Positions 41,872 through 59,023 of a stretch of 64,000 nt of DNA are shown in pieces. Within the stretch, counting starts at the first letter, position 1. The number at the start of each line of letters is the position of its first letter. The stretch comes from a virus, in the IMG/VR virus record IMGVR_UViG_3300017917_002349, positions 64,001-128,000 of that record. One strand, given 5' to 3'. The translations under genes and the position numbers were made by a program. The notes below the pieces were generated by a model. It had not been told where the DNA came from and did not search any database. It worked only from the letters and a program-made list of their open reading frames with translations.

Positions 41872-41916
41872 TTGGGTCGCTCCCTGTTGTGTTAATATGT
41901 GTTAATTATAGCTGAA

Positions 41917-42201
41917 TCAATCACCGCTGTCAATCTGATAGCGATCCCCACACTCCGAGCAGGTGTATTCTGTAAGGCAACGCCCCACAGTCTGCGATGT
42001 ATACTTGTGTTTACAGGGCTGTCCTTCCTTGTCGAGTCGGACTTGACCTGTAGGGCGACCGAACATATACTGGCCGCCACAGTTGGTGCAACCAAAAGTA
42101 TCTGTGGCTGCATCATAGCCTGCGATCACGTGCTTATATTTGTTATCACCGGCCGGCACACGACCGCTACCGTTGCAAACTGGGCAAACGCCTTTTTCCA
42201 T
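41917..42201 (-). CDS. Cys-rich zinc-binding protein
   Basis: CPVCNGSG, CTNCGG, CSECG; start moved to ATG behind AGGAGCGAAA. Confidence 0.8.
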   Translation of the reverse strand: MEKGVCPVCNGSGRVPAGDNKYKHVIAGYDAATDTFGCTNCGGQYMFGRPTGQVRLDKEGQPCKHKYTSQTVGRCLTEYTCSECGDRYQIDSGD

Positions 42202-42256
42202 CTTTCGCTCCTTACTATTCACTATACCTATAGTATAGCACCGCAGGCCCAATCTG

Positions 42257-42568
42257 TCAACCAATCTTCTTGATCTTCCTATCCAAAGATTCCTGGATCT
42301 CTCGTGTGGCTTGATCTAGCAGTTGCCCGCGGGTGTGGACGTCGCTGTTGCAGAACTGCCACATCTTGAACGCATCCCCTCTGAGTCCCATCAAGATCCC
42401 TTCGTAGTCCCGGTAGGAGCAGCAGGCCCAGAGACTCTGAGGACGATAGGTGTAGAAGTCATAGTCACGCTCTGTGTTGTGCTGGGTGACTATGCGTCGG
42501 GCCGTGCTCTGCAGTCGGTAATACTTCTGCATGTGCCCGGACTTTTGATCGTAGACTACCCACCCCAT
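42257..42568 (-). CDS. Hypothetical protein (N-terminus resembles 55108-55413)
   Basis: MGWVVYDQKS start coupled to the upstream stop. Confidence 0.7.
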   Translation of the reverse strand: MGWVVYDQKSGHMQKYYRLQSTARRIVTQHNTERDYDFYTYRPQSLWACCSYRDYEGILMGLRGDAFKMWQFCNSDVHTRGQLLDQATREIQESLDRKIKKIG

Positions 42569-42915
42569 CAGTCCAACCTCGATCCTGCGTAGGCTTGGAA
42601 ACCATACCGCTTGAACACCTCTGCCGCTGCCTCTGCACCTGCTTCCAGGGTGTCCACGTTCTGGCAACCGAACTTGCTGGGATTCCACATCTGCAGACCG
42701 CCGCTGTAGGACGGACGGATGTCGCACTCTTTCAGTGCGCGACCGATCTTGGTGTTGCCTTTGACACCGTAGATGTTTACCCAGGCGAAACCACAGGCGA
42801 AACGATCTTGACCTCCCAGGACTTCCTGGAAGTATTTCTGTGCAGCAGCGTAGGCCGCTTGCTGTGCTTCTTGGACGATTGCAGGGATCTGCTCGGGGGT
42901 TGCTGTGATAGTCAT
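42568..42915 (-). CDS. Hypothetical protein
   Basis: ACGFAWV..SRLD; AGGAGCCC RBS. Confidence 0.8.
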   Translation of the reverse strand: MTITATPEQIPAIVQEAQQAAYAAAQKYFQEVLGGQDRFACGFAWVNIYGVKGNTKIGRALKECDIRPSYSGGLQMWNPSKFGCQNVDTLEAGAEAAAEVFKRYGFQAYAGSRLD

Positions 42916-42968
42916 TTGGGCTCCTTGTTGTCTAAGTGTGTGTAGTATACTGTGAATTGGCTGCTGTG

Positions 42969-43199
42969 TCAACCAAAATGTTTCAGTAGCCCGCCAAGGC
43001 ATAGGGTTATGGCCACAGCATTAATCACCATCTGCGGATAGTTCTTGACCCTAACAGTCCAGATGAAATAGGCTGTGCCACCTAGCAGTCCCATAAGAAT
43101 ATTCCACGGATGTAGCTGCGGGAAGTAGTTCATCAGCAGGTACATGACTAGGATGAACGCCGTGCCCACCCATTGGATGATGTCGTTGATGTCTCTCAT
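42969..43199 (-). CDS. Small three-TM membrane protein
   Basis: QW.GT, PWN; resembles 36631-36864. Confidence 0.75.
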   Translation of the reverse strand: MRDINDIIQWVGTAFILVMYLLMNYFPQLHPWNILMGLLGGTAYFIWTVRVKNYPQMVINAVAITLCLGGLLKHFG

Positions 43200-43309
43200 A
43201 GAGCAGCCACGTTGGCCAACACCGCGGCAGTGATCAATAGACCGGCTTGGATGACGCCAGTGATCCAGCCCAGGTAAATCACAGTCAGTGCACCGATGAG
43301 TTTCAACAT
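43196..43309 (-). CDS. 37-aa hydrophobic peptide (not in ORF track)
   Basis: MLKLIGALTVIYLGWITG... behind AGGAGCGAAC and a promoter. Confidence 0.7.
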   Translation of the reverse strand: MLKLIGALTVIYLGWITGVIQAGLLITAAVLANVAAL

Positions 43310-43376
43310 AGTTCGCTCCTAAGTTGTTTAGTTAGTGTGTATATAATAGCATCACTGAACCAAAATGTCAACCAAA

Positions 43377-44163: not shown

Positions 44164-44237
44164 AAAAAAACCCACTGTACGTGCATACAGTGGGTCCAAG
44201 TTACCGCCGCCGGGAGCGAATCGGTTTAGGCAGTAAC
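44164..44237 (-). ncRNA. 3'UTR anti-RBS hairpin 1 plus intrinsic terminator (candidate regulatory RNA)
   Basis: GUUACUGCC/GGCGGUAAC outer stem, CCG/CGG inner stem, loop AUUCGCUCC; then ACCCACUGUA/UACAGUGGGU plus U-tract. Confidence 0.7.
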
Positions 44238-44531
44238 AGCCGCTGTCTTCGCGACAGTGACCTTGACACCTGCTTTGGGTGCAGGATTCTTTTTCTCGCA
44301 GTAGGCGATGGCAGCTTGGATAGCGGCATTGCCCGAGCCAAAGCCCACGGACTTGAGATGCTGTACAGCTTCAGCCTTGGTCATCTCGTTGGGCAGCTCT
44401 ACGAGATCCACATCAGTATGACCGTTCTTAGCGAGGATCTTGATGCGCATCACATCATTGGCAAAACGTAGCTTGGTCTTGCCTTCAAGGGTTGAAACGC
44501 CTGCAACAGCAAATTTCTTATCAGTAGCCAT
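44226..44531 (-). CDS. Hypothetical basic protein
   Basis: FAVAGVS..RFAND..GHTDVDLVELP..MTK; own promoter; RBS GGAGAU. Confidence 0.8.
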   Translation of the reverse strand: MATDKKFAVAGVSTLEGKTKLRFANDVMRIKILAKNGHTDVDLVELPNEMTKAEAVQHLKSVGFGSGNAAIQAAIAYCEKKNPAPKAGVKVTVAKTAAVTA

Positions 44532-44613
44532 TTTCAAATCTCCAAAAGTGTGTGTATGAATCTGCCAATCCTTTTATTGGCATAGTTTACTATAGCACAA
44601 CTATCCAAGTATG

Positions 44614-44805
44614 TCAACCGATCGGTTGCCCAATTTGTGGAATCACTTGGATAGTCACGCTTTCCTTCTCGTCTAGGGCGGCGATAAACTCGTCATCATA
44701 GACCAGATCCTGCATGGCCAAATCAATCATTGATTCGACCCGATCCAGATCTGCTTGGCCTGGGCCAGAGCAGATCACGGTAAATGTGTAGGCAAATGTT
44801 CTCAT
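44614..44805 (-). CDS. Hypothetical protein
   Basis: Coupled ORF. Confidence 0.7.
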   Translation of the reverse strand: MRTFAYTFTVICSGPGQADLDRVESMIDLAMQDLVYDDEFIAALDEKESVTIQVIPQIGQPIG

Positions 44806-45422
44806 CCTATCAAACTACGGCGCTGTTCAGCACCATCCTTGATCCATTCTGTGAGCTCTTCTTCGTTCTCACGCTCCCATTCACGGATGCTCTCCGAGAT
44901 ACCAAATGCTTCGTCCAACTCCGGATAGTTCTGCTCGATCTCGTCGGCACCCATGCCTTCTAGACTGAAATCATCGCAGGAGCCTTCAGAGTATTCGCCA
45001 GCAAATGCCATACCACCTTCATAGAACAGGGCATTGACACGGAAACCCAGTTGCTCGAGCTTCTGGTAAGCATTCACGGGTGGAGCCCATGCTGAGTCGA
45101 AGCAGGTGTGTAAGATCCGACCATCTGGATGGATATCCTGATTGCCCGATTCGCCTACATCCCATTTGGTGCCCCACTCATTGGTGCAGAAATCATACCA
45201 GTTGCCGTAGCCATACTTCTCTACATTGCGTCGAGTCTGTGCTTCCAGAGCCTGCTGTTTCTCGTCGTCACCGTAGGAACCACTCATAGTTTCTGTGAGT
45301 TCTTTGGGCACAGGAATGAACTCTTGCAGGAACTCTCCCCGCTCAAGTGCATCGTAGGCCCGCTTGATCATCGCTGGGTCATCGTGTTCTAGTGTGACGT
45401 TATTGTTGCACCAATTCGGCAT
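44802..45422 (-). CDS. DUF1281/YubB (Api92-like) ferredoxin-fold protein
   Basis: MPNWCNN, WYDF..WGTKWD, FDSAWAPP. Confidence 0.8.
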   Translation of the reverse strand: MPNWCNNNVTLEHDDPAMIKRAYDALERGEFLQEFIPVPKELTETMSGSYGDDEKQQALEAQTRRNVEKYGYGNWYDFCTNEWGTKWDVGESGNQDIHPDGRILHTCFDSAWAPPVNAYQKLEQLGFRVNALFYEGGMAFAGEYSEGSCDDFSLEGMGADEIEQNYPELDEAFGISESIREWERENEEELTEWIKDGAEQRRSLIG

Positions 45423-45456
45423 AGTCGCTCTCCTAAGTCAAGTTAGTATTATACAG

Positions 45457-45681
45457 TCAACGGCTCAAAATGTCAACCAGTTTTTGGTTCTGGAAATCTT
45501 TGTATCTGCGATCCAATAAGGAGTCTACGCTGTCCACGAGGGTCTGTTCCATGAGTGTGGCATTTCTGCCACAGATCTGTTCCACCGTCCGCAGGATCTT
45601 GTGCTGTGCCATGGGGCTGTATTCACCGGACTCCAGGGCCTCTACGGCTCTGCGAATGTATTCATGTTCTTGGGGGGTCAT
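45457..45681 (-). CDS. Hypothetical protein
   Basis: Early-array ORF. Confidence 0.65.
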   Translation of the reverse strand: MTPQEHEYIRRAVEALESGEYSPMAQHKILRTVEQICGRNATLMEQTLVDSVDSLLDRRYKDFQNQKLVDILSR

Positions 45682-45892
45682 AGTCTTTCACCATACGGTA
45701 TAGGGGTTCAATTTCTTCACAGTCTACAGCAGAGAATTCGTCATCTCTCCAATCCACGAACTCTGTGCGGACTGGATCTCCATAGTTGCCATCATAGGCT
45801 AGGCTCAGTGCTTCCTCTTCCGAGTCCGCTTCGATCTCGTAGTATTCATCGATAACAGCGGCACGAGCTAGGGTGAACTTGAATCTAGCCAT
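45662..45892 (-). CDS. Hypothetical protein
   Basis: IEADSEEEA motif. Confidence 0.7.
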   Translation of the reverse strand: MARFKFTLARAAVIDEYYEIEADSEEEALSLAYDGNYGDPVRTEFVDWRDDEFSAVDCEEIEPLYRMVKDYDPPRT

Positions 45893-46131
45893 CAGTAATC
45901 CGCCGTGACACGACCGTTATCATAGGTAAGGAATACCTTGCCCGTTTCCACTTGGCCTGTGCCAGCTTCGTCGAAGTAGGTTACCTTATAGCAGAACTGA
46001 CCGCCATTGGTGATACCTACAAACTCTGCGGATTCAAAACTAGCACCTGTGTAACCACTGACTGCTAGAGCACGGGCCAGGCCCTGCCTAGTGAATGTGG
46101 TTAAGGTCTTGAGCGTGTCTGCTGTGATCAT
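45892..46131 (-). CDS. Hypothetical protein
   Basis: Coupled ORF. Confidence 0.7.
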   Translation of the reverse strand: MITADTLKTLTTFTRQGLARALAVSGYTGASFESAEFVGITNGGQFCYKVTYFDEAGTGQVETGKVFLTYDNGRVTADY

Positions 46132-46352
46132 TAGGCACCCCCGTAGTAGATCGCATCCTCATCGGCTGCATTCTCAGCGTATTCTGCGGGGTCCTCATCA
46201 CAATCCTCGCTAAGGATACGCTGGACTTCTTCTGGCTTCAACTCTAGGACGCGGGCGATAGTCAGCACGGTCTGTGCGTCCTGCCCAAAATCGTCACCCA
46301 TGTCGTGGGCCATTTCCTGCACTTCTATTTCCAAATTGCTGAAAAATCCCAT
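46131..46352 (-). CDS. Hypothetical acidic protein
   Basis: AGGAGAGCGAC RBS; start moved to 46352. Confidence 0.75.
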   Translation of the reverse strand: MGFFSNLEIEVQEMAHDMGDDFGQDAQTVLTIARVLELKPEEVQRILSEDCDEDPAEYAENAADEDAIYYGGA

Positions 46353-46401
46353 TGTCGCTCTCCTAAGTATGTGTATATTATAACACACCCTATCCAATCT
46401 G

Positions 46402-46731
46402 TCAACCGATTTCTGCCACGTGTTTGCAGTTGCCACGGAAGGTGAATCCCGGACAGGTGCAGGTCTTGTCCTCTAGATTAACAAAGTAGGAGTTGCCTTT
46501 GGATCCCTTGATCTCCACGGTCGCATTCTTGGCTGCATTCTCAGGGGCCTTGAATGGATTGGGCTTGACTGTTTCGAACTTGCGTCCCCGCTTGTCGAAT
46601 CCTTTGATTCCGTTCTTGAAATACTTGATCTCTTTGGTATCATGCCGTTGGTAGGCAATCAGCGTGGTGCCATCTAGTAGGTAAACATGGGGATGGAAGG
46701 CACCCCCAGTGGTTTCACGCAGTGCTTCCAT
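46402..46731 (-). CDS. SWIM zinc-finger protein
   Basis: GSKGNSY..CTCPGF..CKH. Confidence 0.85.
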   Translation of the reverse strand: MEALRETTGGAFHPHVYLLDGTTLIAYQRHDTKEIKYFKNGIKGFDKRGRKFETVKPNPFKAPENAAKNATVEIKGSKGNSYFVNLEDKTCTCPGFTFRGNCKHVAEIG

Positions 46732-46997
46732 TAACGGTAGTCCTTACGATCACCAAATCGTTCGTTCCAATCGTAGCCAGCCATGTATTCAGCCACTGAC
46801 TCTTTATCGGAGACTTCAACGCGGGGTCCGGAGTCGCTACCAACACCGCCATAGTGCGGCTGTGGACGACGACCGTAGTAGGAATCGGCACTGCCACGAT
46901 CATACAAGCAACCGTGAACTCCACGCACAAACGGAAAACCCTTAAGGGCCCGGACAACACGCTCTTGCTCTGTTTCAGTTTCTAGTTTAATATACAT
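46731..46997 (-). CDS. Hypothetical protein
   Basis: YDRGSADSYYGR; AGGAGCGAAG RBS. Confidence 0.8.
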   Translation of the reverse strand: MYIKLETETEQERVVRALKGFPFVRGVHGCLYDRGSADSYYGRRPQPHYGGVGSDSGPRVEVSDKESVAEYMAGYDWNERFGDRKDYR

Positions 46998-47061
46998 CTT
47001 CGCTCCTGTTATCTAACTATGACTCAAGTATAGCACCAAAATGGCACCCTGTCAACCAAAA

Positions 47062-47382
47062 TCAACGAGGAATACGAACTACGATGCCCTGTGGCGTAGA
47101 AACAACAGCATAGCCCTTGCTCTCAAGAATGCTCACGGCCTCACGAGCCATGGCGCGATCTCTCTTTATGGCACCCTCAAGTTTCACAGCGATGAATTTC
47201 TTGCGGTAGTTGATGTAGCTCTCAGCGTAGGCGAACGCTGTATCCAAAAGGTCCAGAGCTCGCTGTGCCATGCACTGCTGCTGGGGGGTGTAGGTGCAGG
47301 CCAGTTCTCTGTTGCGGTAGTAGGCATTGAGGGCTGCCCCGCGTTTGTTGTCATCTGCATCACGATAGTTTAGTTGTTTCAT
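47062..47382 (-). CDS. Hypothetical protein
   Basis: AGGAGCGUG RBS, own promoter. Confidence 0.75.
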   Translation of the reverse strand: MKQLNYRDADDNKRGAALNAYYRNRELACTYTPQQQCMAQRALDLLDTAFAYAESYINYRKKFIAVKLEGAIKRDRAMAREAVSILESKGYAVVSTPQGIVVRIPR

Positions 47383-47457
47383 TTCACGCTCCTTATGTTC
47401 ACTGTACCTACAGTATAACACCGAAGAATCAAAATGTCAACCAAAATGTCAAAGACC

Positions 47458-47817
47458 CTAGACTATCAAGGGTTTCTTGTAGGGGTCCCTACGATCACTC
47501 CAGATCTTGTAGCTGTGGTTGGCACGTACCCAATCTGCAAATGTCTGTGGCTCAGTCTTGAACCAGGCCTGGATATCGTCTGGACCAATATCTTCCGTGC
47601 TGGTAAACACGTAGATTTCGTAGTGACGATGCTGGTTATACTGTGCTCGAAGTTTCAGTGCTGTAAGGTTAAAGCCCATGGGCTTCTCTACCTTCTTGCT
47701 TTGTTTTATCGAATCAAACAGATGGTTCTTAGCCCAGTTGTCAGGGTGGTGTTCCGTGATCTCTTCAAAGAACTCCACCCCCTCACAGTCCCAAGAGACT
47801 ATGTAATAACGTGTCAT
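47458..47817 (-). CDS. Hypothetical protein
   Basis: WDCEG, LRAQYN.HRHYEIY. Confidence 0.75.
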   Translation of the reverse strand: MTRYYIVSWDCEGVEFFEEITEHHPDNWAKNHLFDSIKQSKKVEKPMGFNLTALKLRAQYNQHRHYEIYVFTSTEDIGPDDIQAWFKTEPQTFADWVRANHSYKIWSDRRDPYKKPLIV

Positions 47818-47987
47818 GAGTTTACTGTGTTGTGCGGATCGAATTCTTCCTCAGAACCAACTCCATTGGAGTCTAACCATTGATAGATCAGTTCCAGAGG
47901 ACAGTCCAGTTGCAGGGCGATGCTCTTAGGGCCATAGCCCTCGATGTAGAGCTGCTCGATGTCATAGGCTAGATCGCTGAGACTCAT
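47814..47987 (-). CDS. Small HTH-like protein (57 aa, not in ORF track)
   Basis: GYGPKSIALQLDCPLELIYQW; coupled on both sides. Confidence 0.65.
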   Translation of the reverse strand: MSLSDLAYDIEQLYIEGYGPKSIALQLDCPLELIYQWLDSNGVGSEEEFDPHNTVNS

Positions 47988-48109
47988 CGTGCAGTCTCCT
48001 TCATGACTTCCTGGGTCTTACCCACAGCCTTATCGATAGCGGATGCTACGCCTGATACTCCAACAGTGGCCACAAACATACCTGCAATGAATGCCATTAG
48101 AATTTTCAT
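47984..48109 (-). CDS. 41-aa membrane-anchored peptide (not in ORF track)
   Basis: AGGAG RBS; MKILMAFIAGMFVATVG. Confidence 0.7.
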   Translation of the reverse strand: MKILMAFIAGMFVATVGVSGVASAIDKAVGKTQEVMKETAR

Positions 48110-48118
48110 GACTACTCC

Positions 48119-48208
48119 TTAAACAAACGCCCAATAAGAACCTACGGCTATTGCATAAACAGCAACAGCGTAGCCCAACATCTTTAGATCTTCTTTGAAC
48201 AAATCCAT
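48119..48208 (-). CDS. 29-aa hydrophobic peptide (not in ORF track)
   Basis: AGGAGCAA RBS behind promoter 48239-48267. Confidence 0.6.
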   Translation of the reverse strand: MDLFKEDLKMLGYAVAVYAIAVGSYWAFV

Positions 48209-48327
48209 GCTTGCTCCTTGAACATTTACGATACCTATAGTATACAACCAATCTAGGATTTTGTCAACTACGCACACGTATAACAGCGGGGCCTGTAGCT
48301 AAAAAGCCACATCCCCTGGCACTCCTG

Positions 48328-49533
48328 TCAAGCTGTCTCTCTTTCGTAGATCACAGTCTGTCCAAAGGGTGCTTCTGCCTTGTCGTTGCCTTTGACAACG
48401 AATATGGTATCGCAGTAGTCCTCTTCACCCCAACCACCACAAGGGTAGCCGTCCGTGAACATGATAAACTTCTTAGGACGAATGTCATTCTCCTGCATGA
48501 ACTGCCAGTTGACTTCGAAGTCTGTGCCACCACCGCCCTGAGGTTCGTAGTCTAACAGGTCTTCACTGTTATCATGTGTGATCTCTTTGTGGTTATAGAT
48601 CTCTGTGTCAAAGCACCACAGATTGACCTTGAAGTCCTCGAACTGATCCATGATGCCCTTGATCTCGCCTAAGAAAATAGTTGCATCTTCTTCACCGATA
48701 CTACCACTCATGTCCATAGAGACCGCTACGTCGATGGTAGTGGCTTCCTTCATGCCCGGAAGGATAGCACCTGAGTGCATACTCTTGCGATTCACACGCT
48801 GGAAGGAATAGTCATTGCGGACGATGCTTTGGATCTCTTGGCGAACCAACTCGCGCCACGAAATCTTAGGCTCAGTCATAGACTTGATCATACGCATGAT
48901 GCCTGCGGGGGTCTTACCTGCACCAGCGGCCGCGGCACTCTGGATCATAGCCTCTTTGATCTCATCACGGATACGCTGAGCATCTTCCTTGCTCATGCCA
49001 GGACGATTGCCTTTGCCTTCTTTGTCGTCGCCTTCACCACCTTGGCCGTCACCTTCTTTGATGTGCTCGTCAAGCAGATCGCCCAATTGCTTGAGCAGTT
49101 GATCCATAGGGATCTTCTCTGCCTTCTCATAGAGATCGTCGTAGATCTCTTCCCAGGCCATGCCACGGTACTTGGCATCATAGCAGATCTTGACCTGTGT
49201 GATTTTCTCGCCGATACGCTCGTCTACGAGGATCTGGTTCACAGCGAAGTCCTGTGCGATGTTGCTGAGCTGACGATCGCGACTACCAACACGGCCAAAG
49301 TGATCAAACACGCAGTGACAGATCTCGTGACCAAACAGGAATTCAAGTTGTTTAGGCGAGAGCTTCTCTACGAACTTGGTATTGTAGTAAAAGTCTCGTC
49401 CATTGGTTGCGGCAGTAGGACACCACTCGTCTGCGTTAATAAGACGCATACGGGTTGCCATGTTGCCAAAGAAAGGAGCCTTGAGCAGTAGGCCTACTCG
49501 GGCTGTGATAAGTTTTTCTACGATTGGATCCAT
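48328..49533 (-). CDS. Metallopeptidase-vWA protein (DUF2201-like)
   Basis: HEICH, DMSGS MIDAS, GGGTDF, FTDG. Confidence 0.9.
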   Translation of the reverse strand: MDPIVEKLITARVGLLLKAPFFGNMATRMRLINADEWCPTAATNGRDFYYNTKFVEKLSPKQLEFLFGHEICHCVFDHFGRVGSRDRQLSNIAQDFAVNQILVDERIGEKITQVKICYDAKYRGMAWEEIYDDLYEKAEKIPMDQLLKQLGDLLDEHIKEGDGQGGEGDDKEGKGNRPGMSKEDAQRIRDEIKEAMIQSAAAAGAGKTPAGIMRMIKSMTEPKISWRELVRQEIQSIVRNDYSFQRVNRKSMHSGAILPGMKEATTIDVAVSMDMSGSIGEEDATIFLGEIKGIMDQFEDFKVNLWCFDTEIYNHKEITHDNSEDLLDYEPQGGGGTDFEVNWQFMQENDIRPKKFIMFTDGYPCGGWGEEDYCDTIFVVKGNDKAEAPFGQTVIYERETA

Positions 49534-49590
49534 TAGTCGCTCTCCTTACTGTATGTATCTATTATAGCACCTCGGGCCCTAGTTGTCAAC

Positions 49591-49719
49591 CAAAAAGAAA
49601 CCGGGCAGTGTTGCCATACTACAACACCCCCGGCACCCTCCGCCAGTGACTAGATGGCGCGGAAAAGGGTGGGCTAGAGCCCTGGGGAGCCCTAGCCCTA
49701 GGCTACGGTGAGGTCTTAA
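49591..49719 (-). ncRNA. Structured 3'UTR of the MoxR gene with self anti-RBS and terminator
   Basis: UUAAGACCUCAC, then three consecutive hairpins, the last ending in UUUCUUUUU. Confidence 0.6.
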
Positions 49720-50804
49720 TTGTTCTCCATAGCCGTCAACACATACTTGCCGAAACGCTTGTGGAACTCGTCGAAGCTCTGCATCTTGGTAGCGTCAAAG
49801 GGCAGGTTGTAGTTGGTGAGTCCAGTCTTGGCACCCATGACAACCAGCTCAGTCGGGAAGTTATCCATCATGTAGCGGAAGAACAGGTCAGCCTTGTCGT
49901 CAAACTTCTTGTCCTTTTTCTCAGCGGCATCCTTGAGCTCGTAGCAGAGGCTAACGGTCAATGAATACATGGCACTGACTTCTTTGATAGCCAAGTCCTT
50001 GACCTTGCCTTCGAGGATGTCGGAAGCCTTAGGCAATTTGCCTGCGATCTTGCGGTGAGCCATAAACTTCACAGCCAAACCGTCACCGATAGCACCTGCG
50101 ATCAAGTTCTGCAGGGTCTCGTTGTCAGTGTCATCGTCATTGAGCAGGTCGCTGACGAACACCCAAGAACGAGGAGTCGCAAATGACTTGCTAGGGCTCT
50201 TAGGATCGAAGTCATAGAGGTCTTGCTTGGCAAAACCCACATAACCAACGACCTCAGGGTGGATGTCGTTCATAACAGCCCACTCTTGGAAGTCATCGAA
50301 GTCTACCTTCATCTCCAAGTGGACGAAACGGTTTGCCAACGGAGCAGGCATACGGTAGGTAACACCACGGTCGCCTTCACGGTTACCAGCGGCAACGATG
50401 TCCACGCCCTTGGGCAGTTCATAGGTGCCTACACGGCGGTTAAGGATCAACTGATAGGCCGCGGCTTGCACGGCAGGAGGAGCGGAGTTAAGCTCGTCCA
50501 AGAAGATCAATGCAGTGGAGTCTGCATTGGTAGGCAGTTCTGCAGGAGGAGCCCAGACCATCTTGCCCTGCTCTGCATTGTAATAGGGGATGCCCTTGAT
50601 GTCTGTGGGTTCCCAAAGAGCCAGACGAACGTCAATGACCTCACGGTCCATCTCAAGACCGATCTGCTTGACGATATCGCTCTTACCGATACCTGGAGGG
50701 CCCCACAGGAATGTAGGACGGCGAACTTTGATCGCCTTACGGATCGCCTTTTTGGCGCTCTTAGGGCCACATTGACGAACGGAAATATCTTGTGCTTTTG
50801 CCAT
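49716..50804 (-). CDS. MoxR-like AAA+ ATPase
   Basis: GPPGIGKS, FLDELN, AAGN, LANRF, TPRSW; adjacent vWA gene. Confidence 0.92.
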   Translation of the reverse strand: MAKAQDISVRQCGPKSAKKAIRKAIKVRRPTFLWGPPGIGKSDIVKQIGLEMDREVIDVRLALWEPTDIKGIPYYNAEQGKMVWAPPAELPTNADSTALIFLDELNSAPPAVQAAAYQLILNRRVGTYELPKGVDIVAAGNREGDRGVTYRMPAPLANRFVHLEMKVDFDDFQEWAVMNDIHPEVVGYVGFAKQDLYDFDPKSPSKSFATPRSWVFVSDLLNDDDTDNETLQNLIAGAIGDGLAVKFMAHRKIAGKLPKASDILEGKVKDLAIKEVSAMYSLTVSLCYELKDAAEKKDKKFDDKADLFFRYMMDNFPTELVVMGAKTGLTNYNLPFDATKMQSFDEFHKRFGKYVLTAMENN

Positions 50805-50879
50805 TTAAGACCTCACTAAAGTTAGAACAAACAAACTGCTTTCCCAGTATCATTATTGTAGCACCTCTCGGTGCAGTTG

Positions 50880-51515
50880 TCAACCACTGATTTTCACGTA
50901 GTTGAGCTGTGTGGCGCCGTTGCCACGGTGTTGCTTGATCTTGCCCTTGATGCGCACAGTGCCCTGGAGTTCCTTGGTATGCCAGAAATCCACGATGCTG
51001 TCACCCATACGTGCATCCATGCGGTACTTGCCATATTCTGCGTTGTACCGTGTGCGGATCACAGTGACATCACCCACGATGGTATCACCTACAGCGCCCG
51101 GGAGCGGTTGGGAACTGAAGATCTCTCGCTTGAGTTCAGCATGCGCAGCATCACGCAAGGCCACTGAGGGCAAACAGCTGATCACAGCGAAATCGTAGAT
51201 ATCACGACCCGTGAACTCTTCTTTGGCTGCAATCCGCATGGCAGTCTGCTGGAAATCATTCATCTTGCCTGTGAGAGCCAACAGCGTGTATGATTTGAAG
51301 TGATCCCGGGCTGAGCGTCCTGCAGCGTAGTCGGCTTCAGTGATCTGGGTGAAATCGTTGTCGCGGAGCCATTGCTTGACCATGGCTTTGTTGGCTCGCT
51401 TGTCGACCACGTAGCTTTCGTCGATATAACGGCCTTTGTCCTCTTTGAGATACTCACCGTTGATGCGTTGAGCTGCTGCCGCGGCACCCCAAACTTGATC
51501 TGCTGTAAATTGCAT
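50880..51515 (-). CDS. Hypothetical protein with C-terminal OB-fold-like region
   Basis: AGGAGCGAU RBS; TQLNYVK end. Confidence 0.8.
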   Translation of the reverse strand: MQFTADQVWGAAAAAQRINGEYLKEDKGRYIDESYVVDKRANKAMVKQWLRDNDFTQITEADYAAGRSARDHFKSYTLLALTGKMNDFQQTAMRIAAKEEFTGRDIYDFAVISCLPSVALRDAAHAELKREIFSSQPLPGAVGDTIVGDVTVIRTRYNAEYGKYRMDARMGDSIVDFWHTKELQGTVRIKGKIKQHRGNGATQLNYVKISG

Positions 51516-51622
51516 CTATCGCTCCTTGCTATTCACTATACCTCTAGTATACGATCTTTTGGCCCAGTTGTCAACCGTTTTGGGGAGTGCCGGCGGGTGT
51601 GGCTTTTCTGCAACATATGGTC

Positions 51623-51696
51623 AAAAAAACAGGGCCTAGTAAGGCCCTGTCAAAACCGCCCCGGGAGCGAATCGGCTTGGTTTTGAGGAGCGAACC
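51623..51696 (-). ncRNA. 3'UTR anti-RBS hairpin 2 plus intrinsic terminator (candidate regulatory RNA)
   Basis: GUUCGCUCCU, then UCAAAACC/GGUUUUGA outer stem, CCG/CGG inner stem, loop AUUCGCUCC; then ACAGGGCCU/AGGCCCUGU plus U-tract. Confidence 0.72.
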
Positions 51697-51972
51697 TTAG
51701 GCTACGGTCCAACCAGCTGCCTTGGCCATGTAACCAAGTGCTACGATTTCACGGCTGGGTTGACCCAACTCGTACTCAGTGACTGTGACACCGTTGCCTG
51801 CTGTGCGGCTGTTTGCGTAGACAGCATAACCACCTTGACGGATGCGGCTAGCTTCTGCGGCTAGATTCTTTACACCAAAACGCTTGCTGGCCTGAGCGGC
51901 TGTAAGAGTTTCACCATTGTAAAGAGCTTGGAAGACCTTGAAAGTCTTGGTTTCGGGATTGAATCGCTTCAT
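51697..51972 (-). CDS. Winged helix-turn-helix protein
   Basis: GETLTAAQASKRFGVKNL..SRIRQGGY plus beta wing; TTGCAA-17-TATAGT promoter. Confidence 0.75.
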   Translation of the reverse strand: MKRFNPETKTFKVFQALYNGETLTAAQASKRFGVKNLAAEASRIRQGGYAVYANSRTAGNGVTVTEYELGQPSREIVALGYMAKAAGWTVA

Positions 51973-52069
51973 GTTTTTTCCTCTAAATGTTATAGCTGAT
52001 TACTTGTTTTTCAGCGTCCTTATAATATACTATAATCCAAAATATATTGCAAGGATCAATATTACCAAA

Positions 52070-52270: not shown

Positions 52271-52493
52271 CGTCTTTCTCCTGTGCAGCAGCCAAGGCAG
52301 CGATTTCAGCGTCGATGGCCCGCTCTTTCTTCTTACCAGCCAGTGCAGTGCCTCGCTGATACACCTGCCAATAATGATCCCCGCAGTAGCTCTTGCCCTG
52401 AAGCACAGCTGAACCGCAGTAGTGGATCGAACCCCTTAGGGGGTCCTGATCCGGACCAATCCACTGGCACTCACGGATTGGAATGTCTACCAT
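52263..52493 (-). CDS. Small Cys/His protein (GcrA C-terminal-like motif)
   Basis: CQWIG..YCG..SYC..H. Confidence 0.6.
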   Translation of the reverse strand: MVDIPIRECQWIGPDQDPLRGSIHYCGSAVLQGKSYCGDHYWQVYQRGTALAGKKKERAIDAEIAALAAAQEKDDE

Positions 52494-53614
52494 TAATGCA
52501 TCCCCTTCATAACAGTTACGCGAGCATGACCTTCCCAATTGCTGGGGAACGCCTTGCGCAGTTGTGCTACTTTGAGCACGGTACGTAGGCTGAGTTCACG
52601 CATGCTGGCACGATTGGTCTCGATGAAATTAACCACTTCGTCCTTGGCGATGTCCTCAAGCTCGTAGTCATCTAACATACCGTCCTTGACGATCTGCTTG
52701 ATGCGCAAGACCTTCTCGCGGTCAGTGTCCATGCGCAGATCGATGTAGTGGCAACGGCTTTCAAGAGCGGCAAGGTGATCCTGCAGTTTCTTAGAACGCA
52801 CATTCTCAAACTTCAAGTTAGTGATAAAGATAGCACCACCCTTGAACTCGAAACGATCTGGAATACCCTCGCTTCGCAGGATACGGCTGTCAGTGTTCCA
52901 CGAGATAGTACGCTTCTTGGAACTGTCCAGGGCCGCTTTTAAAATATTAAGCGAGATGTCGTCCAAAAGAATGCTGTCACAGTCGTCAAACACAAGAATG
53001 CTCTTAGAGTCTGAGAACTTGTAGAGCTTAGAGTACAGACCAATGGCACTCATAGCACCCTTGACGATCTCGTACTTGGGCTTGCGTTCGCCTAGCGTGT
53101 TGAACAGATCGTCCTTAGACAGTACTTCTTCAACACCAAAGCTCTTGCCCACACCAGGAGGGCCTGTGACGATCATGGCACGTACATCGCCTGCTTTCAC
53201 AGCCTTGGTCATGTCCTTGAGGATCTCAAAACGCACACGGGTACGCTCGATGATCTGTTCATCGGTCTCGTGTGCTACAGCAGAGTCAGCGACCTTGATC
53301 TGTGTGAAGTCTGTGACCTCGGCACCCTTGGTGCTCTTGTTCTTGAGCGCAGTCAACATGCTGACAGCCTGGGGCTGGCGAGTGGCCTGTACAGTACCTT
53401 CCACGGCATAGTCTCCTTGACGGCAACGGATGCGGATTGAACGATCTGGGAACGGGATACTGCCTGCGGGACTTACGCTGGTACCATCGACAGTGACATA
53501 GCCTTCGCCCGTCTTTGAGACCTTGTAGTCTTCGACCAACTCGAATGAATAGCCGGCAACATTAGTGGGTTGACCCTTGATGTTGTACCAGCCCTCGGTG
53601 AAAGTAATACGCAT
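52493..53614 (-). CDS. P-loop/AAA ATPase
   Basis: GPPGVGKS, VFDDCD, FITN, ALESR; AGGAGCGAAA RBS. Confidence 0.85.
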   Translation of the reverse strand: MRITFTEGWYNIKGQPTNVAGYSFELVEDYKVSKTGEGYVTVDGTSVSPAGSIPFPDRSIRIRCRQGDYAVEGTVQATRQPQAVSMLTALKNKSTKGAEVTDFTQIKVADSAVAHETDEQIIERTRVRFEILKDMTKAVKAGDVRAMIVTGPPGVGKSFGVEEVLSKDDLFNTLGERKPKYEIVKGAMSAIGLYSKLYKFSDSKSILVFDDCDSILLDDISLNILKAALDSSKKRTISWNTDSRILRSEGIPDRFEFKGGAIFITNLKFENVRSKKLQDHLAALESRCHYIDLRMDTDREKVLRIKQIVKDGMLDDYELEDIAKDEVVNFIETNRASMRELSLRTVLKVAQLRKAFPSNWEGHARVTVMKGMH

Positions 53615-53695
53615 TTTCGCTCCTGTGTATTTGTTGAACATTCTCGTATTATATTACAGATAGGGGCTGTTGTCAACCCCTAACAGTAATAACCC

Positions 53696-54130: not shown

Positions 54131-54198
54131 AGTTCGCTCCTAGTTGTTTAACTCAGTCTAGAGTATAACACGGGCCGGAGCCCGTGTCAACCACATTG

Positions 54199-54552
54199 TT
54201 AAATACCCTGGAACTCTGTAAGGGCTTTCTGTGCGTCTGCGTCCAACATACAGGCGTCCATGGCCCGTTGCTTTTCCTCTGCTACGGTCTTGCGATATGC
54301 TTCCAACTCTGCTTGTTTGGCTTCCATAGCAGGCCACACTACATCTGAAGGGTTAAGGTAAGGACCCGTGTAGTCTACCTTGTCTTCCTTAAGGGTGATC
54401 TCACCTGAGCGGATGCCCTCAAATACCATGCCCCACGTGGGTTGCTGAGGACGGCCTGTGGGTCCGAACAGTTCTTGTGCTTTAGATTGGACCTTCTCCG
54501 CAGCGATCTCGTTGAGTCGGCGGACGAAATACTCGCGTTGTGCTTGTTCCAT
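54199..54552 (-). CDS. Hypothetical protein
   Basis: AGGAGCGC RBS, own promoter. Confidence 0.8.
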   Translation of the reverse strand: MEQAQREYFVRRLNEIAAEKVQSKAQELFGPTGRPQQPTWGMVFEGIRSGEITLKEDKVDYTGPYLNPSDVVWPAMEAKQAELEAYRKTVAEEKQRAMDACMLDADAQKALTEFQGI

Positions 54553-54624
54553 AATGCGCTCCTTAAAAGTGTGTGTGATATAGTAAGTTGCTCTGCTTCC
54601 TTACTATGTCATTATTATATGCTC

Positions 54625-55107
54625 TTACGAGCCTGTTGTCAACCGGATTTGGTGTGGCTGATCAGCCACAGTGGCAAAGTGCTCGATGAAGATGTGATGA
54701 GCATCACCCGATCGTTGGATGCAGCGATCAGCAGCACGATAGAGATCCAGCCACGTGGGTCCCGGGATCATCTCGTAGACAGGCTGTTCGCCCCAATGAT
54801 CTCTGTAGCAGACTTCCACAGCAGCAGCATAGGGATGCTGCTGGTTCAGGTCCTCTACTTCAAAGATACTCCAGATTGAGCGCAGGCCCAGTTGCTGCTT
54901 GATGTCGCTGTAGTGATCCATCTTAGTGTCAAATGCAGCTTCATCCTGCTTGTAGGCATTCTCCAAGCCCTGCTCGAACTGACGGACGATTTTCAACAGC
55001 AGATCCCCCAGGGGCTGCTCTACGACCATACGCTGTAGATCACGCAGCTCGCAGAGGGTGTTGTGTACAGTTTTAAAGTCTTGTGAGTGAAGTGTCACGG
55101 TTTCCAT
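54625..55107 (-). CDS. Hypothetical protein
   Basis: TW.DLY.AAD..SGD.HHIFIE. Confidence 0.75.
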   Translation of the reverse strand: METVTLHSQDFKTVHNTLCELRDLQRMVVEQPLGDLLLKIVRQFEQGLENAYKQDEAAFDTKMDHYSDIKQQLGLRSIWSIFEVEDLNQQHPYAAAVEVCYRDHWGEQPVYEMIPGPTWLDLYRAADRCIQRSGDAHHIFIEHFATVADQPHQIRLTTGS

Positions 55108-55413
55108 TTACATGCTCCAATAGAGTTCAGATGAAGGATCGCAGCTACGGGGTGTGTTGACACTCTGTGTGAACTCAGCACCCGTCATCAAGTTACGCTT
55201 TGTGACACGCTGTTCTATCACTGAGTGATACCACGCAGCTTCCGCGGCAGCCATCCAGAACAGGGGGTCGTCTTCATGAGCATTGCTGCCCGGGTAGTAG
55301 GGAAAGTGACGCACATACTTCTTGTGCGCTCTAGTGATGGCAGCCTGTGCAGCCGGGTGGGTCTTGTAGCTCTTGACTATGGCAGAACTACGCTTGTCGT
55401 ATACGTACCACAT
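55108..55413 (-). CDS. Hypothetical protein
   Basis: NLMTG..NTPRSCDPSSELYWSM; AGGAGCGAC RBS. Confidence 0.8.
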   Translation of the reverse strand: MWYVYDKRSSAIVKSYKTHPAAQAAITRAHKKYVRHFPYYPGSNAHEDDPLFWMAAAEAAWYHSVIEQRVTKRNLMTGAEFTQSVNTPRSCDPSSELYWSM

Positions 55414-55467
55414 GGTCGCTCCTTGTTAACGTTACAGTGCGTATTATACACAGAAGAGTGGCGCCTG

Positions 55468-55788
55468 TCAACTACCACGCAGATCGGTGTTGTAGAATGG
55501 ACGCAGTTCGCGGATTAATTCACGCTCGCGAGCATGAGCCGCTGTCTTGCCTCGCACCAATTCCAAAGGCTCGATGCGGATCAGTTCTTTAGAATCATAG
55601 CTTCTCAACAGACGGCATAGAGCCCAGGTCTTGGCTTCAGTGCGAGCGCGATACCAGTGCTTGGCTGCCCGGCTACGTAGACTCTTTAGCACTGTGGTCT
55701 CTGTTTTGGCAGTAACACCAATGTAGACTCCCTCAGGGCCTGTGATCTGATATATGATGTGATTACGATCTGATCTCTTTGCTCGCAT
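55468..55788 (-). CDS. GIY-YIG-like nuclease domain protein
   Basis: IYQI..YIGVT, R..H, E.ELI, YN. Confidence 0.75.
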   Translation of the reverse strand: MRAKRSDRNHIIYQITGPEGVYIGVTAKTETTVLKSLRSRAAKHWYRARTEAKTWALCRLLRSYDSKELIRIEPLELVRGKTAAHARERELIRELRPFYNTDLRGS

Positions 55789-55873
55789 AGTCCGCTCCTT
55801 CACTATGCATATAGTATAACATCACCGGGCCAATCTGTCAACCAAAATAACAAAGACCCTACAGGGCCTCGGG

Positions 55874-58313: not shown

Positions 58314-58547
58314 ATGATTGAACAACTACAGTTTCTAACGTCATGTGGCAGGCCCTGGGCAGAGCAGCGAGCGCAGTTTGCCCTAGAGATCACTAGGGCA
58401 CATCAGCAGGGTGATATATCCGAGTCGGAGTATCAGGCACTCATGGCTGACCTGATCCGATCAGATCGATTAAATGAGGAAGCCGATGACGGGGACATCA
58501 AGAACCTATTGGTCAGCTGCATAATGATTGGAGCGAAATTGGCATGA
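58314..58547 (+). CDS. Hypothetical protein
   Basis: Coupled ORF. Confidence 0.7.
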   Translation: MIEQLQFLTSCGRPWAEQRAQFALEITRAHQQGDISESEYQALMADLIRSDRLNEEADDGDIKNLLVSCIMIGAKLA

Positions 58548-59023
58548 AAATCCGTGATGTAATACAAGAAAATATCTTTACCTGCGACTATCATAAGGTC
58601 ATGCAGGCCGTGGCTGAACTCTATCAGCAACACTACGCAGTCAACGTATGGAACTCTGCAGAAGCACATGACGCTGCTGCCCGGGTACTGATGAAGCAGC
58701 ATCCCACAGATGAAGAGCTGGACTTGATCATCGACACCGCAGAGCTGCCAGAACGATTCCTAGATCTAGACTTTCCCGTCATGGATGAGCTGATGTTTGG
58801 CTCTGGCGGAGACATCACAGAAGAGCCTGCTTCTAGAGACCTCTGCACATCGGGCAAGCCCGATAGGGCTCTGGGTGCCAGCCAACTGGCCAGCTGTAAG
58901 TCGCAGGGCTATCGCAGCAGAGAAGGTGGCAAGAGCCACAAGATAGGCTCAGAACGTGTCAAGGTCCGTGGCAAACGCATCAAGGGCAAGAAGTACGGCG
59001 GCCCCCTACCAGATTGGAGTTAA
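58544..59023 (+). CDS. Hypothetical protein with basic C-terminal domain
   Basis: MKIRDVIQE N-terminus; LASCKSQG..YGGPLPDWS. Confidence 0.7.
   Translation: MKIRDVIQENIFTCDYHKVMQAVAELYQQHYAVNVWNSAEAHDAAARVLMKQHPTDEELDLIIDTAELPERFLDLDFPVMDELMFGSGGDITEEPASRDLCTSGKPDRALGASQLASCKSQGYRSREGGKSHKIGSERVKVRGKRIKGKKYGGPLPDWS

Follow-up and report, generated by a model that had tools for sequence, protein, structure and literature searches.

The minus strand of the window analysed here (the whole stretch of 64,000 nucleotides from an uncultured giant phage, positions 64,001 to 128,000 of the IMG/VR virus record IMGVR_UViG_3300017917_002349) carries two copies of a small hairpin at the tails of early transcripts, and this hairpin very probably pairs with the tagged ribosome-binding sites (RBSs) of early genes, which would damp early protein synthesis. 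We consider it reasonably likely that the tail hairpins are antisense devices of the early transcripts, pairing with the leader tag both in cis and in trans and producing a pulse or a dose cap. In its broadest form the proposal, which we regard as evenly poised, is that of an address-coded regulon of a lytic jumbo phage built of RNA only, in which portable tail loops, acting in cis and in trans, read a private tag of early RBSs; the length of transcription would time early shut-off, and phage clades might exclude one another according to their tags.

Both copies are set on the sense strand between a stop codon and an intrinsic terminator and share a core of 21-22 nt (44203-44224 and 51655-51675; all features given here are on the minus strand) that differs between them by a one-base indel. 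The core hairpin of copy 1 (44210-44224) consists of a 3-bp stem and the 9-nt loop AUUCGCUCC; this 15-mer is identical in copy 2 (51661-51675), and the outer stems in which the two are nested (44200-44237 and 51650-51686) differ in sequence, the first one containing a U-G pair. A first-pass annotation of this DNA had already placed the cores between stop codon and terminator and located a second seed, with coordinates that all held on re-checking, and the CCG/CGG inner hairpin with an open loop that it described was reproduced in the MFE folds of both copies. Its assignment of the element to the 3' UTR is right for the core, which lies in the stop-to-terminator segment, and wrong for the 5' arm of the copy 1 outer stem, which consists of the last three codons and the stop codon of the upstream gene. 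The second seed is present beside copy 2 (51686-51695), where it provides a 9-nt match to the leader of the AAA ATPase gene, but it is kept in only a few relatives. Repeated 15-mers are not rare in the window (about 45, mostly promoter cassettes); a 15-nt match between the two short stop-to-terminator segments was reached in none of 5000 shuffles, in which the longest was 11. Taken alone, the hairpins fold no better than shuffled sequences (z of -0.8 and -0.3), and the inner stem of copy 2 is missing from the centroid structure. The probability of being unpaired is 0.65-0.81 for the anti-tag motif versus 0.43-0.44 over the entire element, and opening the anti-tag loop costs 0.06 kcal/mol. No third hairpin was found by a motif scan of the assembled phage genome, which comprises 162 kb and is about 46% complete. 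A host assignment via MAG contigs was tried and discarded, the matches being short contigs in unrelated MAGs that gave no coherent picture.

Copy 1 follows the K gene (44226-44531, stop codon 44226-44228), which codes for a basic protein of 101 aa that belongs to no known family and has no known fold, and copy 2 follows the W gene (51697-51972, stop codon 51697-51699), which codes for a wHTH protein (PF14090, phrog_4973). The minus-strand early array has only two strong terminators, and each is directly preceded by a copy: the one at 44168-44197 closes a block of promoters running from 49589 to 44617, and the one at 51628-51651 closes a block running from 55841 to 52052; a weak terminator-like hairpin lies near 55850, further upstream of the tagged leaders of the copy 2 block. 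Copy 2 closes an operon headed by the AAA ATPase gene (52493-53614, phrog_1250). Both K and W have promoters of their own (for K, a called sigma70 promoter at 44589-44617) and leaders without the tag, which is present in 0/57 and 0/36 of the host-gene leaders counted, in agreement with the earlier claim that these genes avoid the tagged RBS class. A private cis pair on the W or K messages was also considered and rejected, for cognate pairing was no better than non-cognate pairing. The K protein was modelled confidently (pLDDT 84) with a best fold match of only Z 3.2, so a role as an RNA chaperone is not supported.

The complement of the hairpin loop is borne by 14 sigma70-led leaders of the early array. 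The tag was found in 13 of the 30 called promoter-led genes, as opposed to 3 of the 183 other genes (p 2.5e-10), and in none of the 37 late-box genes. The loop had been described as the exact complement of the extended Shine-Dalgarno (SD) sequence of the early genes; the complementarity and the early, sigma70-led nature of the leaders were borne out, and the tag itself was refined to a core GAGCG with GGAGAGCG variants included. In cis reach of copy 2 are the tagged RBS of the AAA ATPase (53615-53624) and four further leaders upstream (54131-55800; starts 54130, 54552, 55413 and 55788), and upstream of copy 1 there are five (45423-49546; starts 45422, 46352, 46997, 47382 and 49533), three of them GGAGAGCG variants. 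The remaining four are out of reach: the leader at 51516-51527 is 3' of copy 2 and has the MoxR terminator before copy 1, so that trans action or read-through would be required, and three leaders 3' of the last copy (41872-43320; starts 43309, 42201 and 41871) have no cis tail. When hairpin targets were predicted against translation starts, as the first-pass annotation had proposed, 12 of the top 20 were promoter-led.

Relatives found by protein keep the element in 52 of 66 wHTH UTRs and in 27 of 28 K-gene UTRs, which is the conservation that had been set as a test. Among the copies, which were collected by an exact search and have a near-invariant core, the loop is AUUCGCUCC in 63 of 71 and the inner stem is CCG/CGG in 68 of 73, an invariance that leader pairing does not account for. 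Because the inner stem is nearly invariant, it is chiefly the outer stems that covary: at least five outer pairs form in 80 of 83 wHTH copies, with 57 different arms, which extends to relatives the original observation that the outer stems differ and nevertheless pair. The minus-strand orientation, first deduced from a G-U wobble, is confirmed by a strand-neutral mismatch test in relatives (G-U versus A-C counts of 16:1, 11:0 and 30:3) and by the terminator U-tracts; the two strands could not be told apart by the number of G-U pairs in plain MFE folds, a measure that the mismatch test replaced.

The loop was expected to co-vary with the early RBS motif of each relative, and it does. In a sister clade the leaders carry GAGGGC and the loops GCCCUC; TCGCTC is found at 55/68 GAGCG loci and 1/27 AGGGC loci, and GCCCTC at 6/68 and 19/27, respectively, counts that take in loci found by the motif itself and compare two main clades that represent one evolutionary change, relatives not being independent. 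The stems of GCCCUC multi-hairpin arrays vary freely. Across AAA-ATPase lineages, taken from a quick tree, the leader co-varies with the operon tail: a complement of at least 7 nt to the lineage's own tail is present in 48/72 lineages versus 4.5% for distant pairs, with at least five motif states. These comparisons make it very likely that loop-tag pairing is under selection. Some lineages count against the proposed device. In lineage L346 the leaders mostly carry GGAGCA and the loops stay GCCCUC, i.e., the loop follows the AAA leader and not the majority tag, and no anti-GGAGCA hairpin was found for this lineage; L342 also retains GCCCUC loops, L347 has the tag upstream of the SD, and one AAA lineage with GGAGUU leaders has no matching tail. 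In relative G006 two copies lie behind the AAA gene rather than the wHTH gene, making the element a portable one. Candidate third copies in G003 and G004 turned out to be tagged RBSs of opposite-strand genes, and TGCTCCT clusters in G013 are coding repeats. There is no cultured close relative; PA5oct, with 39-50% identity in the ATPases, has no shared tag in the region read.

How far a single hairpin reaches is a separate question. Nested transcripts have the hairpins as common tails, so that 10 of the 14 tags can be reached in cis, as in icaR, and since copy 2 tails the AAA-ATPase operon, whose leader has the 9-nt match, much of the pairing can be cis in the form of a 5'-3' closure. The family also uses gene-private cis pairs: the MoxR ATPase has an RBS of its own without the tag (50805-50816) and a 12-nt complement to it across the MoxR stop codon (49708-49719), single-stranded in the fold, which co-varies with the leader in relatives through compensatory variants. 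It is therefore conceivable, if rather unlikely, that pairing is exclusively cis, with each hairpin binding RBSs of the nested transcript it belongs to, chiefly the AAA-ATPase head, and with the other tags stemming from recombination-homogenised promoter cassettes. Placement of the copies before the array's strong terminators, the MoxR pair, the fact that all 11 same-strand tags of G006 lie upstream of its element pair, and the match of loops to the AAA leader from lineage to lineage, L346 and those with few shared tags among them, would all suit this explanation, and PeSL recombination of this kind is established in T4-like phages (PMC2839356). It leaves aside, however, the tagged leaders past the last element, of which there are four here and several in G003, G004, G005 and G016, and the K and W messages, which have no cis target because their promoters are their own and their leaders untagged; moreover, tag bases are held while leader flanks vary, and the tag is about as frequent behind an element-free terminator as in cis reach (55% versus 65%, p 0.06; 80% versus 72%, p 0.2). 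The unreachable tags and the similar frequency beyond terminators favour trans action as well. The earlier idea of trans-acting 3' UTR RNAs is supported, as a putative mode of action, for at least 4/14 leaders, and it has to be qualified because nested transcripts share the 3' end that carries the hairpin.

Three further explanations assign the element another role. That accumulated tails mainly silence early genes of an incoming related phage, with tag divergence creating immunity groups as for c4 in P1/P7, is improbable as the main role: tag and loop do switch as a block between sister clades, and a 4-nt change in c4 and its target limits P1/P7 cross-reactivity (PMC5320573), but the gene-private pairs (MoxR, and AAA in other lineages) fit self-control rather than exclusion, and the region has no sign of a temperate life style. 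Such exclusion and the antisense device are not mutually exclusive. Still less probable is a positive effect of pairing, which would shield tagged RBSs from a GGAG-cutting nuclease, stabilise or circularise the mRNA, or pass ribosomes from tail to head. Secondary structure does protect GGAG sites from T4 RegB (PMC3014915), and the K and MoxR elements lie at a stop codon, on the path of terminating ribosomes; yet the SD itself is inside the duplex, an arrangement that blocks initiation in icaR and c4, and a search of the assembled part gave no match to RegB or RegA, a weak test given silent controls and a genome about 46% complete. The least credible possibility, and a very slight one, is that no base pairing occurs and the element is a plus-strand GGA-loop protein decoy, a DNA operator or a recombination signal, as might be suggested by the near-invariance of the 15-mer including its stem and by the plus strand folding about equally well. 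The decoy, named by the first-pass annotation as the refuting alternative, fared poorly: the G-U bias and the U-tracts assign the RNA to the minus strand, the loop on the plus strand lacks an exposed full GGA, no good plus-strand promoter is nearby, and a decoy would be sense rather than complement and would not follow five different leader motifs. To judge from the sequences compared, the non-pairing reading is largely refuted by co-variation.

We thus return to the antisense device, which may operate as follows. The sequence shows many early promoters for the host sigma70 RNA polymerase, whose nested transcripts run to one of the two strong terminators, so that the hairpin lies at their end. 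As co-variation suggests, 6-8 bp would then form between the 9-nt loop and the GGAGCG(AA) tag overlapping the SD of promoter-proximal early genes. A transcript whose tail has been completed would do this in cis, and the W and K messages would act in trans on tagged leaders lacking a tail. At about -11 to -15 kcal/mol the duplex would cover the SD and mostly outcompete the 16S anti-SD (at leader 47382 the generic anti-SD pairs better than the hairpin seed), so initiation would be blocked, possibly followed by decay, by analogy with known anti-SD RNAs. Ordinary GGAG sites, as in late and host genes, would be spared. Because the hairpins are themselves on sigma70 transcripts, it is more cautious to read the effect as delayed negative feedback than as a timed early-to-late switch. 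The probable origin of the device is a head-to-tail pair private to the AAA-ATPase message, of the type still seen in MoxR.

As proposed, the device works like cuckoo/CcsR, icaR and P1 c4 and is a member of none of them. The cuckoo, CcsR1-4 and ar14 RNAs of Alphaproteobacteria (PMC8034643, PMC4615179) likewise expose loops on hairpins with variable stems, but their loop is the generic anti-SD CCUCCUCCC, absent from all 71 phage copies, whereas the phage loop complements a private tag, co-evolves with the viral leaders and leaves ordinary SDs alone; cuckoo RNAs adjoin a DUF1127 gene (CIN1), and the phage hairpins a wHTH gene and an unassigned one. Rfam, searched at the gathering score and at E up to 10, returned only tRNAs and a sub-threshold anti-hemB match, with no cuckoo/CcsR/ar14 or c4 match. 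Like 3' UTR-derived trans-acting sRNAs, the hairpins lie on the sense strand between a stop codon and an intrinsic terminator, and the tagged leaders without a cis tail would be their targets on other transcripts. In icaR of Staphylococcus aureus (PMC3868564) the message closes on itself, with a motif in the 3' UTR binding the SD, blocking initiation and inviting RNase III. Such pairing fits MoxR and the AAA operon directly, both having a co-varying 3' complement to an SD of the same transcript; icaR is one gene with one pair, while the lytic phage would use one tail for a tag shared by many nested and separate transcripts. The c4 RNA (PMC5320573) is also a phage RNA whose loops pair with RBS-overlapping targets and co-vary with them between related phages, but it has three stems, is processed by RNase P and has one operon of a temperate phage as its target, in contrast to a single small hairpin facing about 14 leaders. 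Early RBSs are marked post-transcriptionally by an extended GGAG motif in T4 as well (PMC3014915), where the readers are proteins, a nuclease (RegB) and a repressor (RegA), and not the RNA predicted here. PeSL cassettes of RB49 and phi1 (PMC2839356) are similarly repeated sigma70 promoter-leader cassettes before small early ORFs, with stem-loops that are terminators and recombination sites and for which no antisense loop to leaders has been described. Finally, CsrA/RsmA decoys expose GGA in loops of the transcribed strand, which in the phage bears the complement instead.

To our knowledge, post-transcriptional early-gene shut-off in large lytic phages has been seen mainly with the T4 proteins RegB and RegA, and we are aware of one bacterial case of 5'-3' UTR pairing, icaR. 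Our literature search found no description of the system, although the bare motif may be listed in the supplements of Weinberg 2017 or Fremin 2023. If the proposal is true, a widespread aquatic phage family controls its early genes by RNA alone, using a natural, co-evolving tag/anti-tag code in which an orthogonal tag distinguishes early messages from the late and host messages that share the ribosome with them. Pairing of 5' and 3' ends would then be common in phages and scalable from a single gene to a regulon, and the hairpin and its tag would constitute a simple two-part module of translational control.

The window covers bases 64001-128000 of a virus record 162 kb long; at about 46% completeness (CheckV), the record points to a jumbo phage with a genome of some 350 kb. 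A cultured close relative was not found, PA5oct and Paride having both ATPases at 39-50%. The phage has T4-like late boxes, and its minus strand carries, at about 41-56 kb, an early array of small genes, each preceded by a near-consensus sigma70 promoter. Palindromic TGTGGC/TGTTGC-type sites (window 51590-51615, other early cassettes and many relatives) adjoin early promoters, often within terminator stems; they are perhaps operators, with the wHTH protein as a potential binder.

The K gene (44226-44531, minus) and the wHTH gene (51697-51972, minus) are each followed, between stop codon and terminator, by an exact 15-nt core hairpin whose 3-bp stem closes the loop AUUCGCUCC (minus strand, 44210-44224 and 51661-51675, respectively); both copies, the second seed, the stops and the terminators lie where the first-pass annotation had placed them. 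The outer stems around the two cores are unrelated in sequence, and the 15 nt common to both stop-to-terminator segments compare with a maximum of 11 in 5000 shuffles. An exact search with the core matched at least 119 viral contigs. At loci found by protein alone, the element is present in 52 of 66 distinct wHTH UTRs and 27 of 28 K UTRs, with two or three loops in tandem in some relatives. The outer stems, the first of which starts inside the K coding sequence, vary freely in sequence with pairing kept in 80 of 83 (57 arms); the inner stem is near-invariant (68/73), a constancy not accounted for by pairing with leaders. The isolated hairpins are not more stable than shuffles. In the related record G006, the 15-mer is missing behind the wHTH gene and occurs twice behind the AAA ATPase gene, implying that the element is portable.

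The K protein family has 57 diverse members with invariant G11, R22, A24, R29, L33 and H38, and paralogues in some genomes; a fold search with its confident alpha/beta model returned no match. The K and wHTH leaders also contain 5' hairpins (44563-44582 and 51996-52016, minus); that of wHTH is kept in relatives (mean -5.7 versus -2.7 kcal/mol shuffled) and may be a message stabiliser or an operator.

The loop is complementary to a tag, an extended Shine-Dalgarno (SD) sequence with a GAGCG core. This core lies in the last 20 nt ahead of the start in 13 of the 30 promoter-led genes, against 3 of 183 other genes and none of the 37 with a late box (p 2.5e-10). Counting a short ORF at 43309, tagged leaders number 14. 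Predicted seed duplexes reach -11 to -15.6 kcal/mol with tagged leaders, against about -6 kcal/mol at ordinary GGAG sites and between -4.5 and -6.1 kcal/mol with the wHTH, K and MoxR leaders. In relatives' leaders, GGAG is followed by C (0.83), G (0.77), A (0.61) and A (0.57), with mixed flanks; the tag is absent there too from the leaders of the two genes that host the element (0/57 and 0/36), as had been claimed for the window. The full GGAGCGAA also precedes (58530-58543, plus) a plus-strand non-early gene (58544-59023), possibly as an extra target, possibly by chance.

The loop co-varies with the early ribosome-binding motif in relatives, a comparison that the first-pass annotation had suggested. 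In L123, a complete 357-kb relative, leaders read GAGGGCA, neither wHTH nor K is followed by the element, and the AAA ATPase gene has three hairpins behind it whose loops read UGCCCUC (z -6.7); the same GCCCUC-type design, with unrelated stems, occurs in about 45 further loci of its clade. Among 103 dereplicated loci, which were partly ascertained via the motif and reflect only one evolutionary change, the 3' zones of GAGCG-type arrays contain TCGCTC in 55/68 and GCCCTC in 6/68, whereas those of AGGGC-type arrays contain them in 1/27 and 19/27. The AAA leader has a complement of at least 7 nt before the first terminator in 48 of 72 lineages, versus 4.5% of 3254 distant pairs. Its motif states with matching tails (GGAGCGAA, GAGGGCA, GGAGCCAAC, GGAGCUA and two singletons) sit on separate supported branches of a quick tree; in one lineage, with a GGAGUU leader, a tail match was not found. 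Exceptions are L346 and L342, which keep GCCCUC loops with most leaders reading otherwise, and L347, where the tag precedes the SD. L347 and L123 leaders have repeats of the tag AGGGCAA close to where the transcript begins, 15-25 nt ahead of the SD; some leaders hold two of them. A K-copy loop variant (L214:10315-10332, L220:8937-8954), which represents a single event, is a perfect match to the GGAGAGCG-type leaders in the block upstream of it. Behind the AAA gene of a lineage that has no clear tag is a long hairpin with a 16-nt UG-rich loop (L355:11006-11060, L356:11003-11060).

The MoxR gene, located within the same interval as the two copies, has a private 12-nt leader/tail pair (50805-50816 with 49708-49719, minus; -17.6 kcal/mol), whose tail side is single-stranded and for which about 45 relatives show several compensatory variants. 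We infer that head-to-tail pairs private to single genes came first, and that a shared tag arose in two clades by generalisation of one such pair. The MoxR stop codon and the promoter that follows it are separated by a stack of three strong hairpins (49595-49707, minus; z -3.0); the shape of the first is kept in relatives, where its loop is of the CUCAG/CCCAG type. In PA5oct (NC_071039.1), the AAA ATPase leader (L383:19975-19997) has a complement just past the stop (L383:21170-21185; 8 nt, 10 with G-U), which is folded into a local hairpin; this is possibly a cultured case of head-to-tail pairing, or chance.

Could the element instead be a plus-strand decoy? When single mismatches in Watson-Crick-only folds were scored on the gene-sense strand, G-U outnumbered A-C by 16:1 (wHTH), 11:0 (K) and 30:3 (the sister clade with GCCCUC loops), although the relatives do not count as independent cases. 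The motif is exposed, with unpaired probabilities of 0.81, 0.65 and 0.75 versus about 0.43 for whole elements, and no plus-strand promoters were found near the hairpins. Together with the U-tracts, these observations led us to reject the decoy and bear out the minus-strand orientation originally proposed. Nor does the system belong to any known one compared. Its working mode is like that of the cuckoo/CcsR RNAs, whose anti-SD loops derive from 3' UTRs (PMC8034643), icaR (PMC3868564) and c4 (PMC5320573), but it lacks the cuckoo motif, a DUF1127 gene and the c4 fold; it would fill the role of T4 RegB/RegA (PMC3014915). A search of Rfam gave no match, and no published description was found within the literature searched.

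As for reach, promoter and terminator mapping places each copy just ahead of one of two strong terminators closing blocks of nested transcripts. Transcripts that run to copy 2, behind wHTH, carry five tagged leaders (55788-53614), and those that run to copy 1, behind K, another five (49533-45422), so these ten can be reached in cis. For tagged leader 51515, the MoxR terminator ends the transcript; leaders 43309, 42201 and 41871 are downstream of the last copy, and comparable orphans occur in four other records. Across relatives, the tag is almost as frequent behind an element-free terminator as where a copy can reach it in cis (55% vs 65% and 80% vs 72%). The wHTH and K genes are each transcribed from a promoter of their own, and their leaders lack the tag. 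The hairpin would act on tagged leaders in trans as well as in cis, and would not require a processed sRNA.

The hairpin system is real and conserved, and the hairpin is almost certainly a base-pairing device. Pairing with leaders very probably takes place in vivo and, by analogy with icaR and c4, is likely to repress initiation, since the SD would lie inside the duplex. The polymerase would cross 2-5 kb before tails appear and then accumulate, which suggests a pulse-like outcome. Because the hairpins are on sigma70 transcripts, the temporal switch first envisaged would operate as delayed feedback and not as a late-gene switch. Judged from sequence, the system would be a new form of anti-SD control by RNA, and its private code, which spans a regulon, is unusual.
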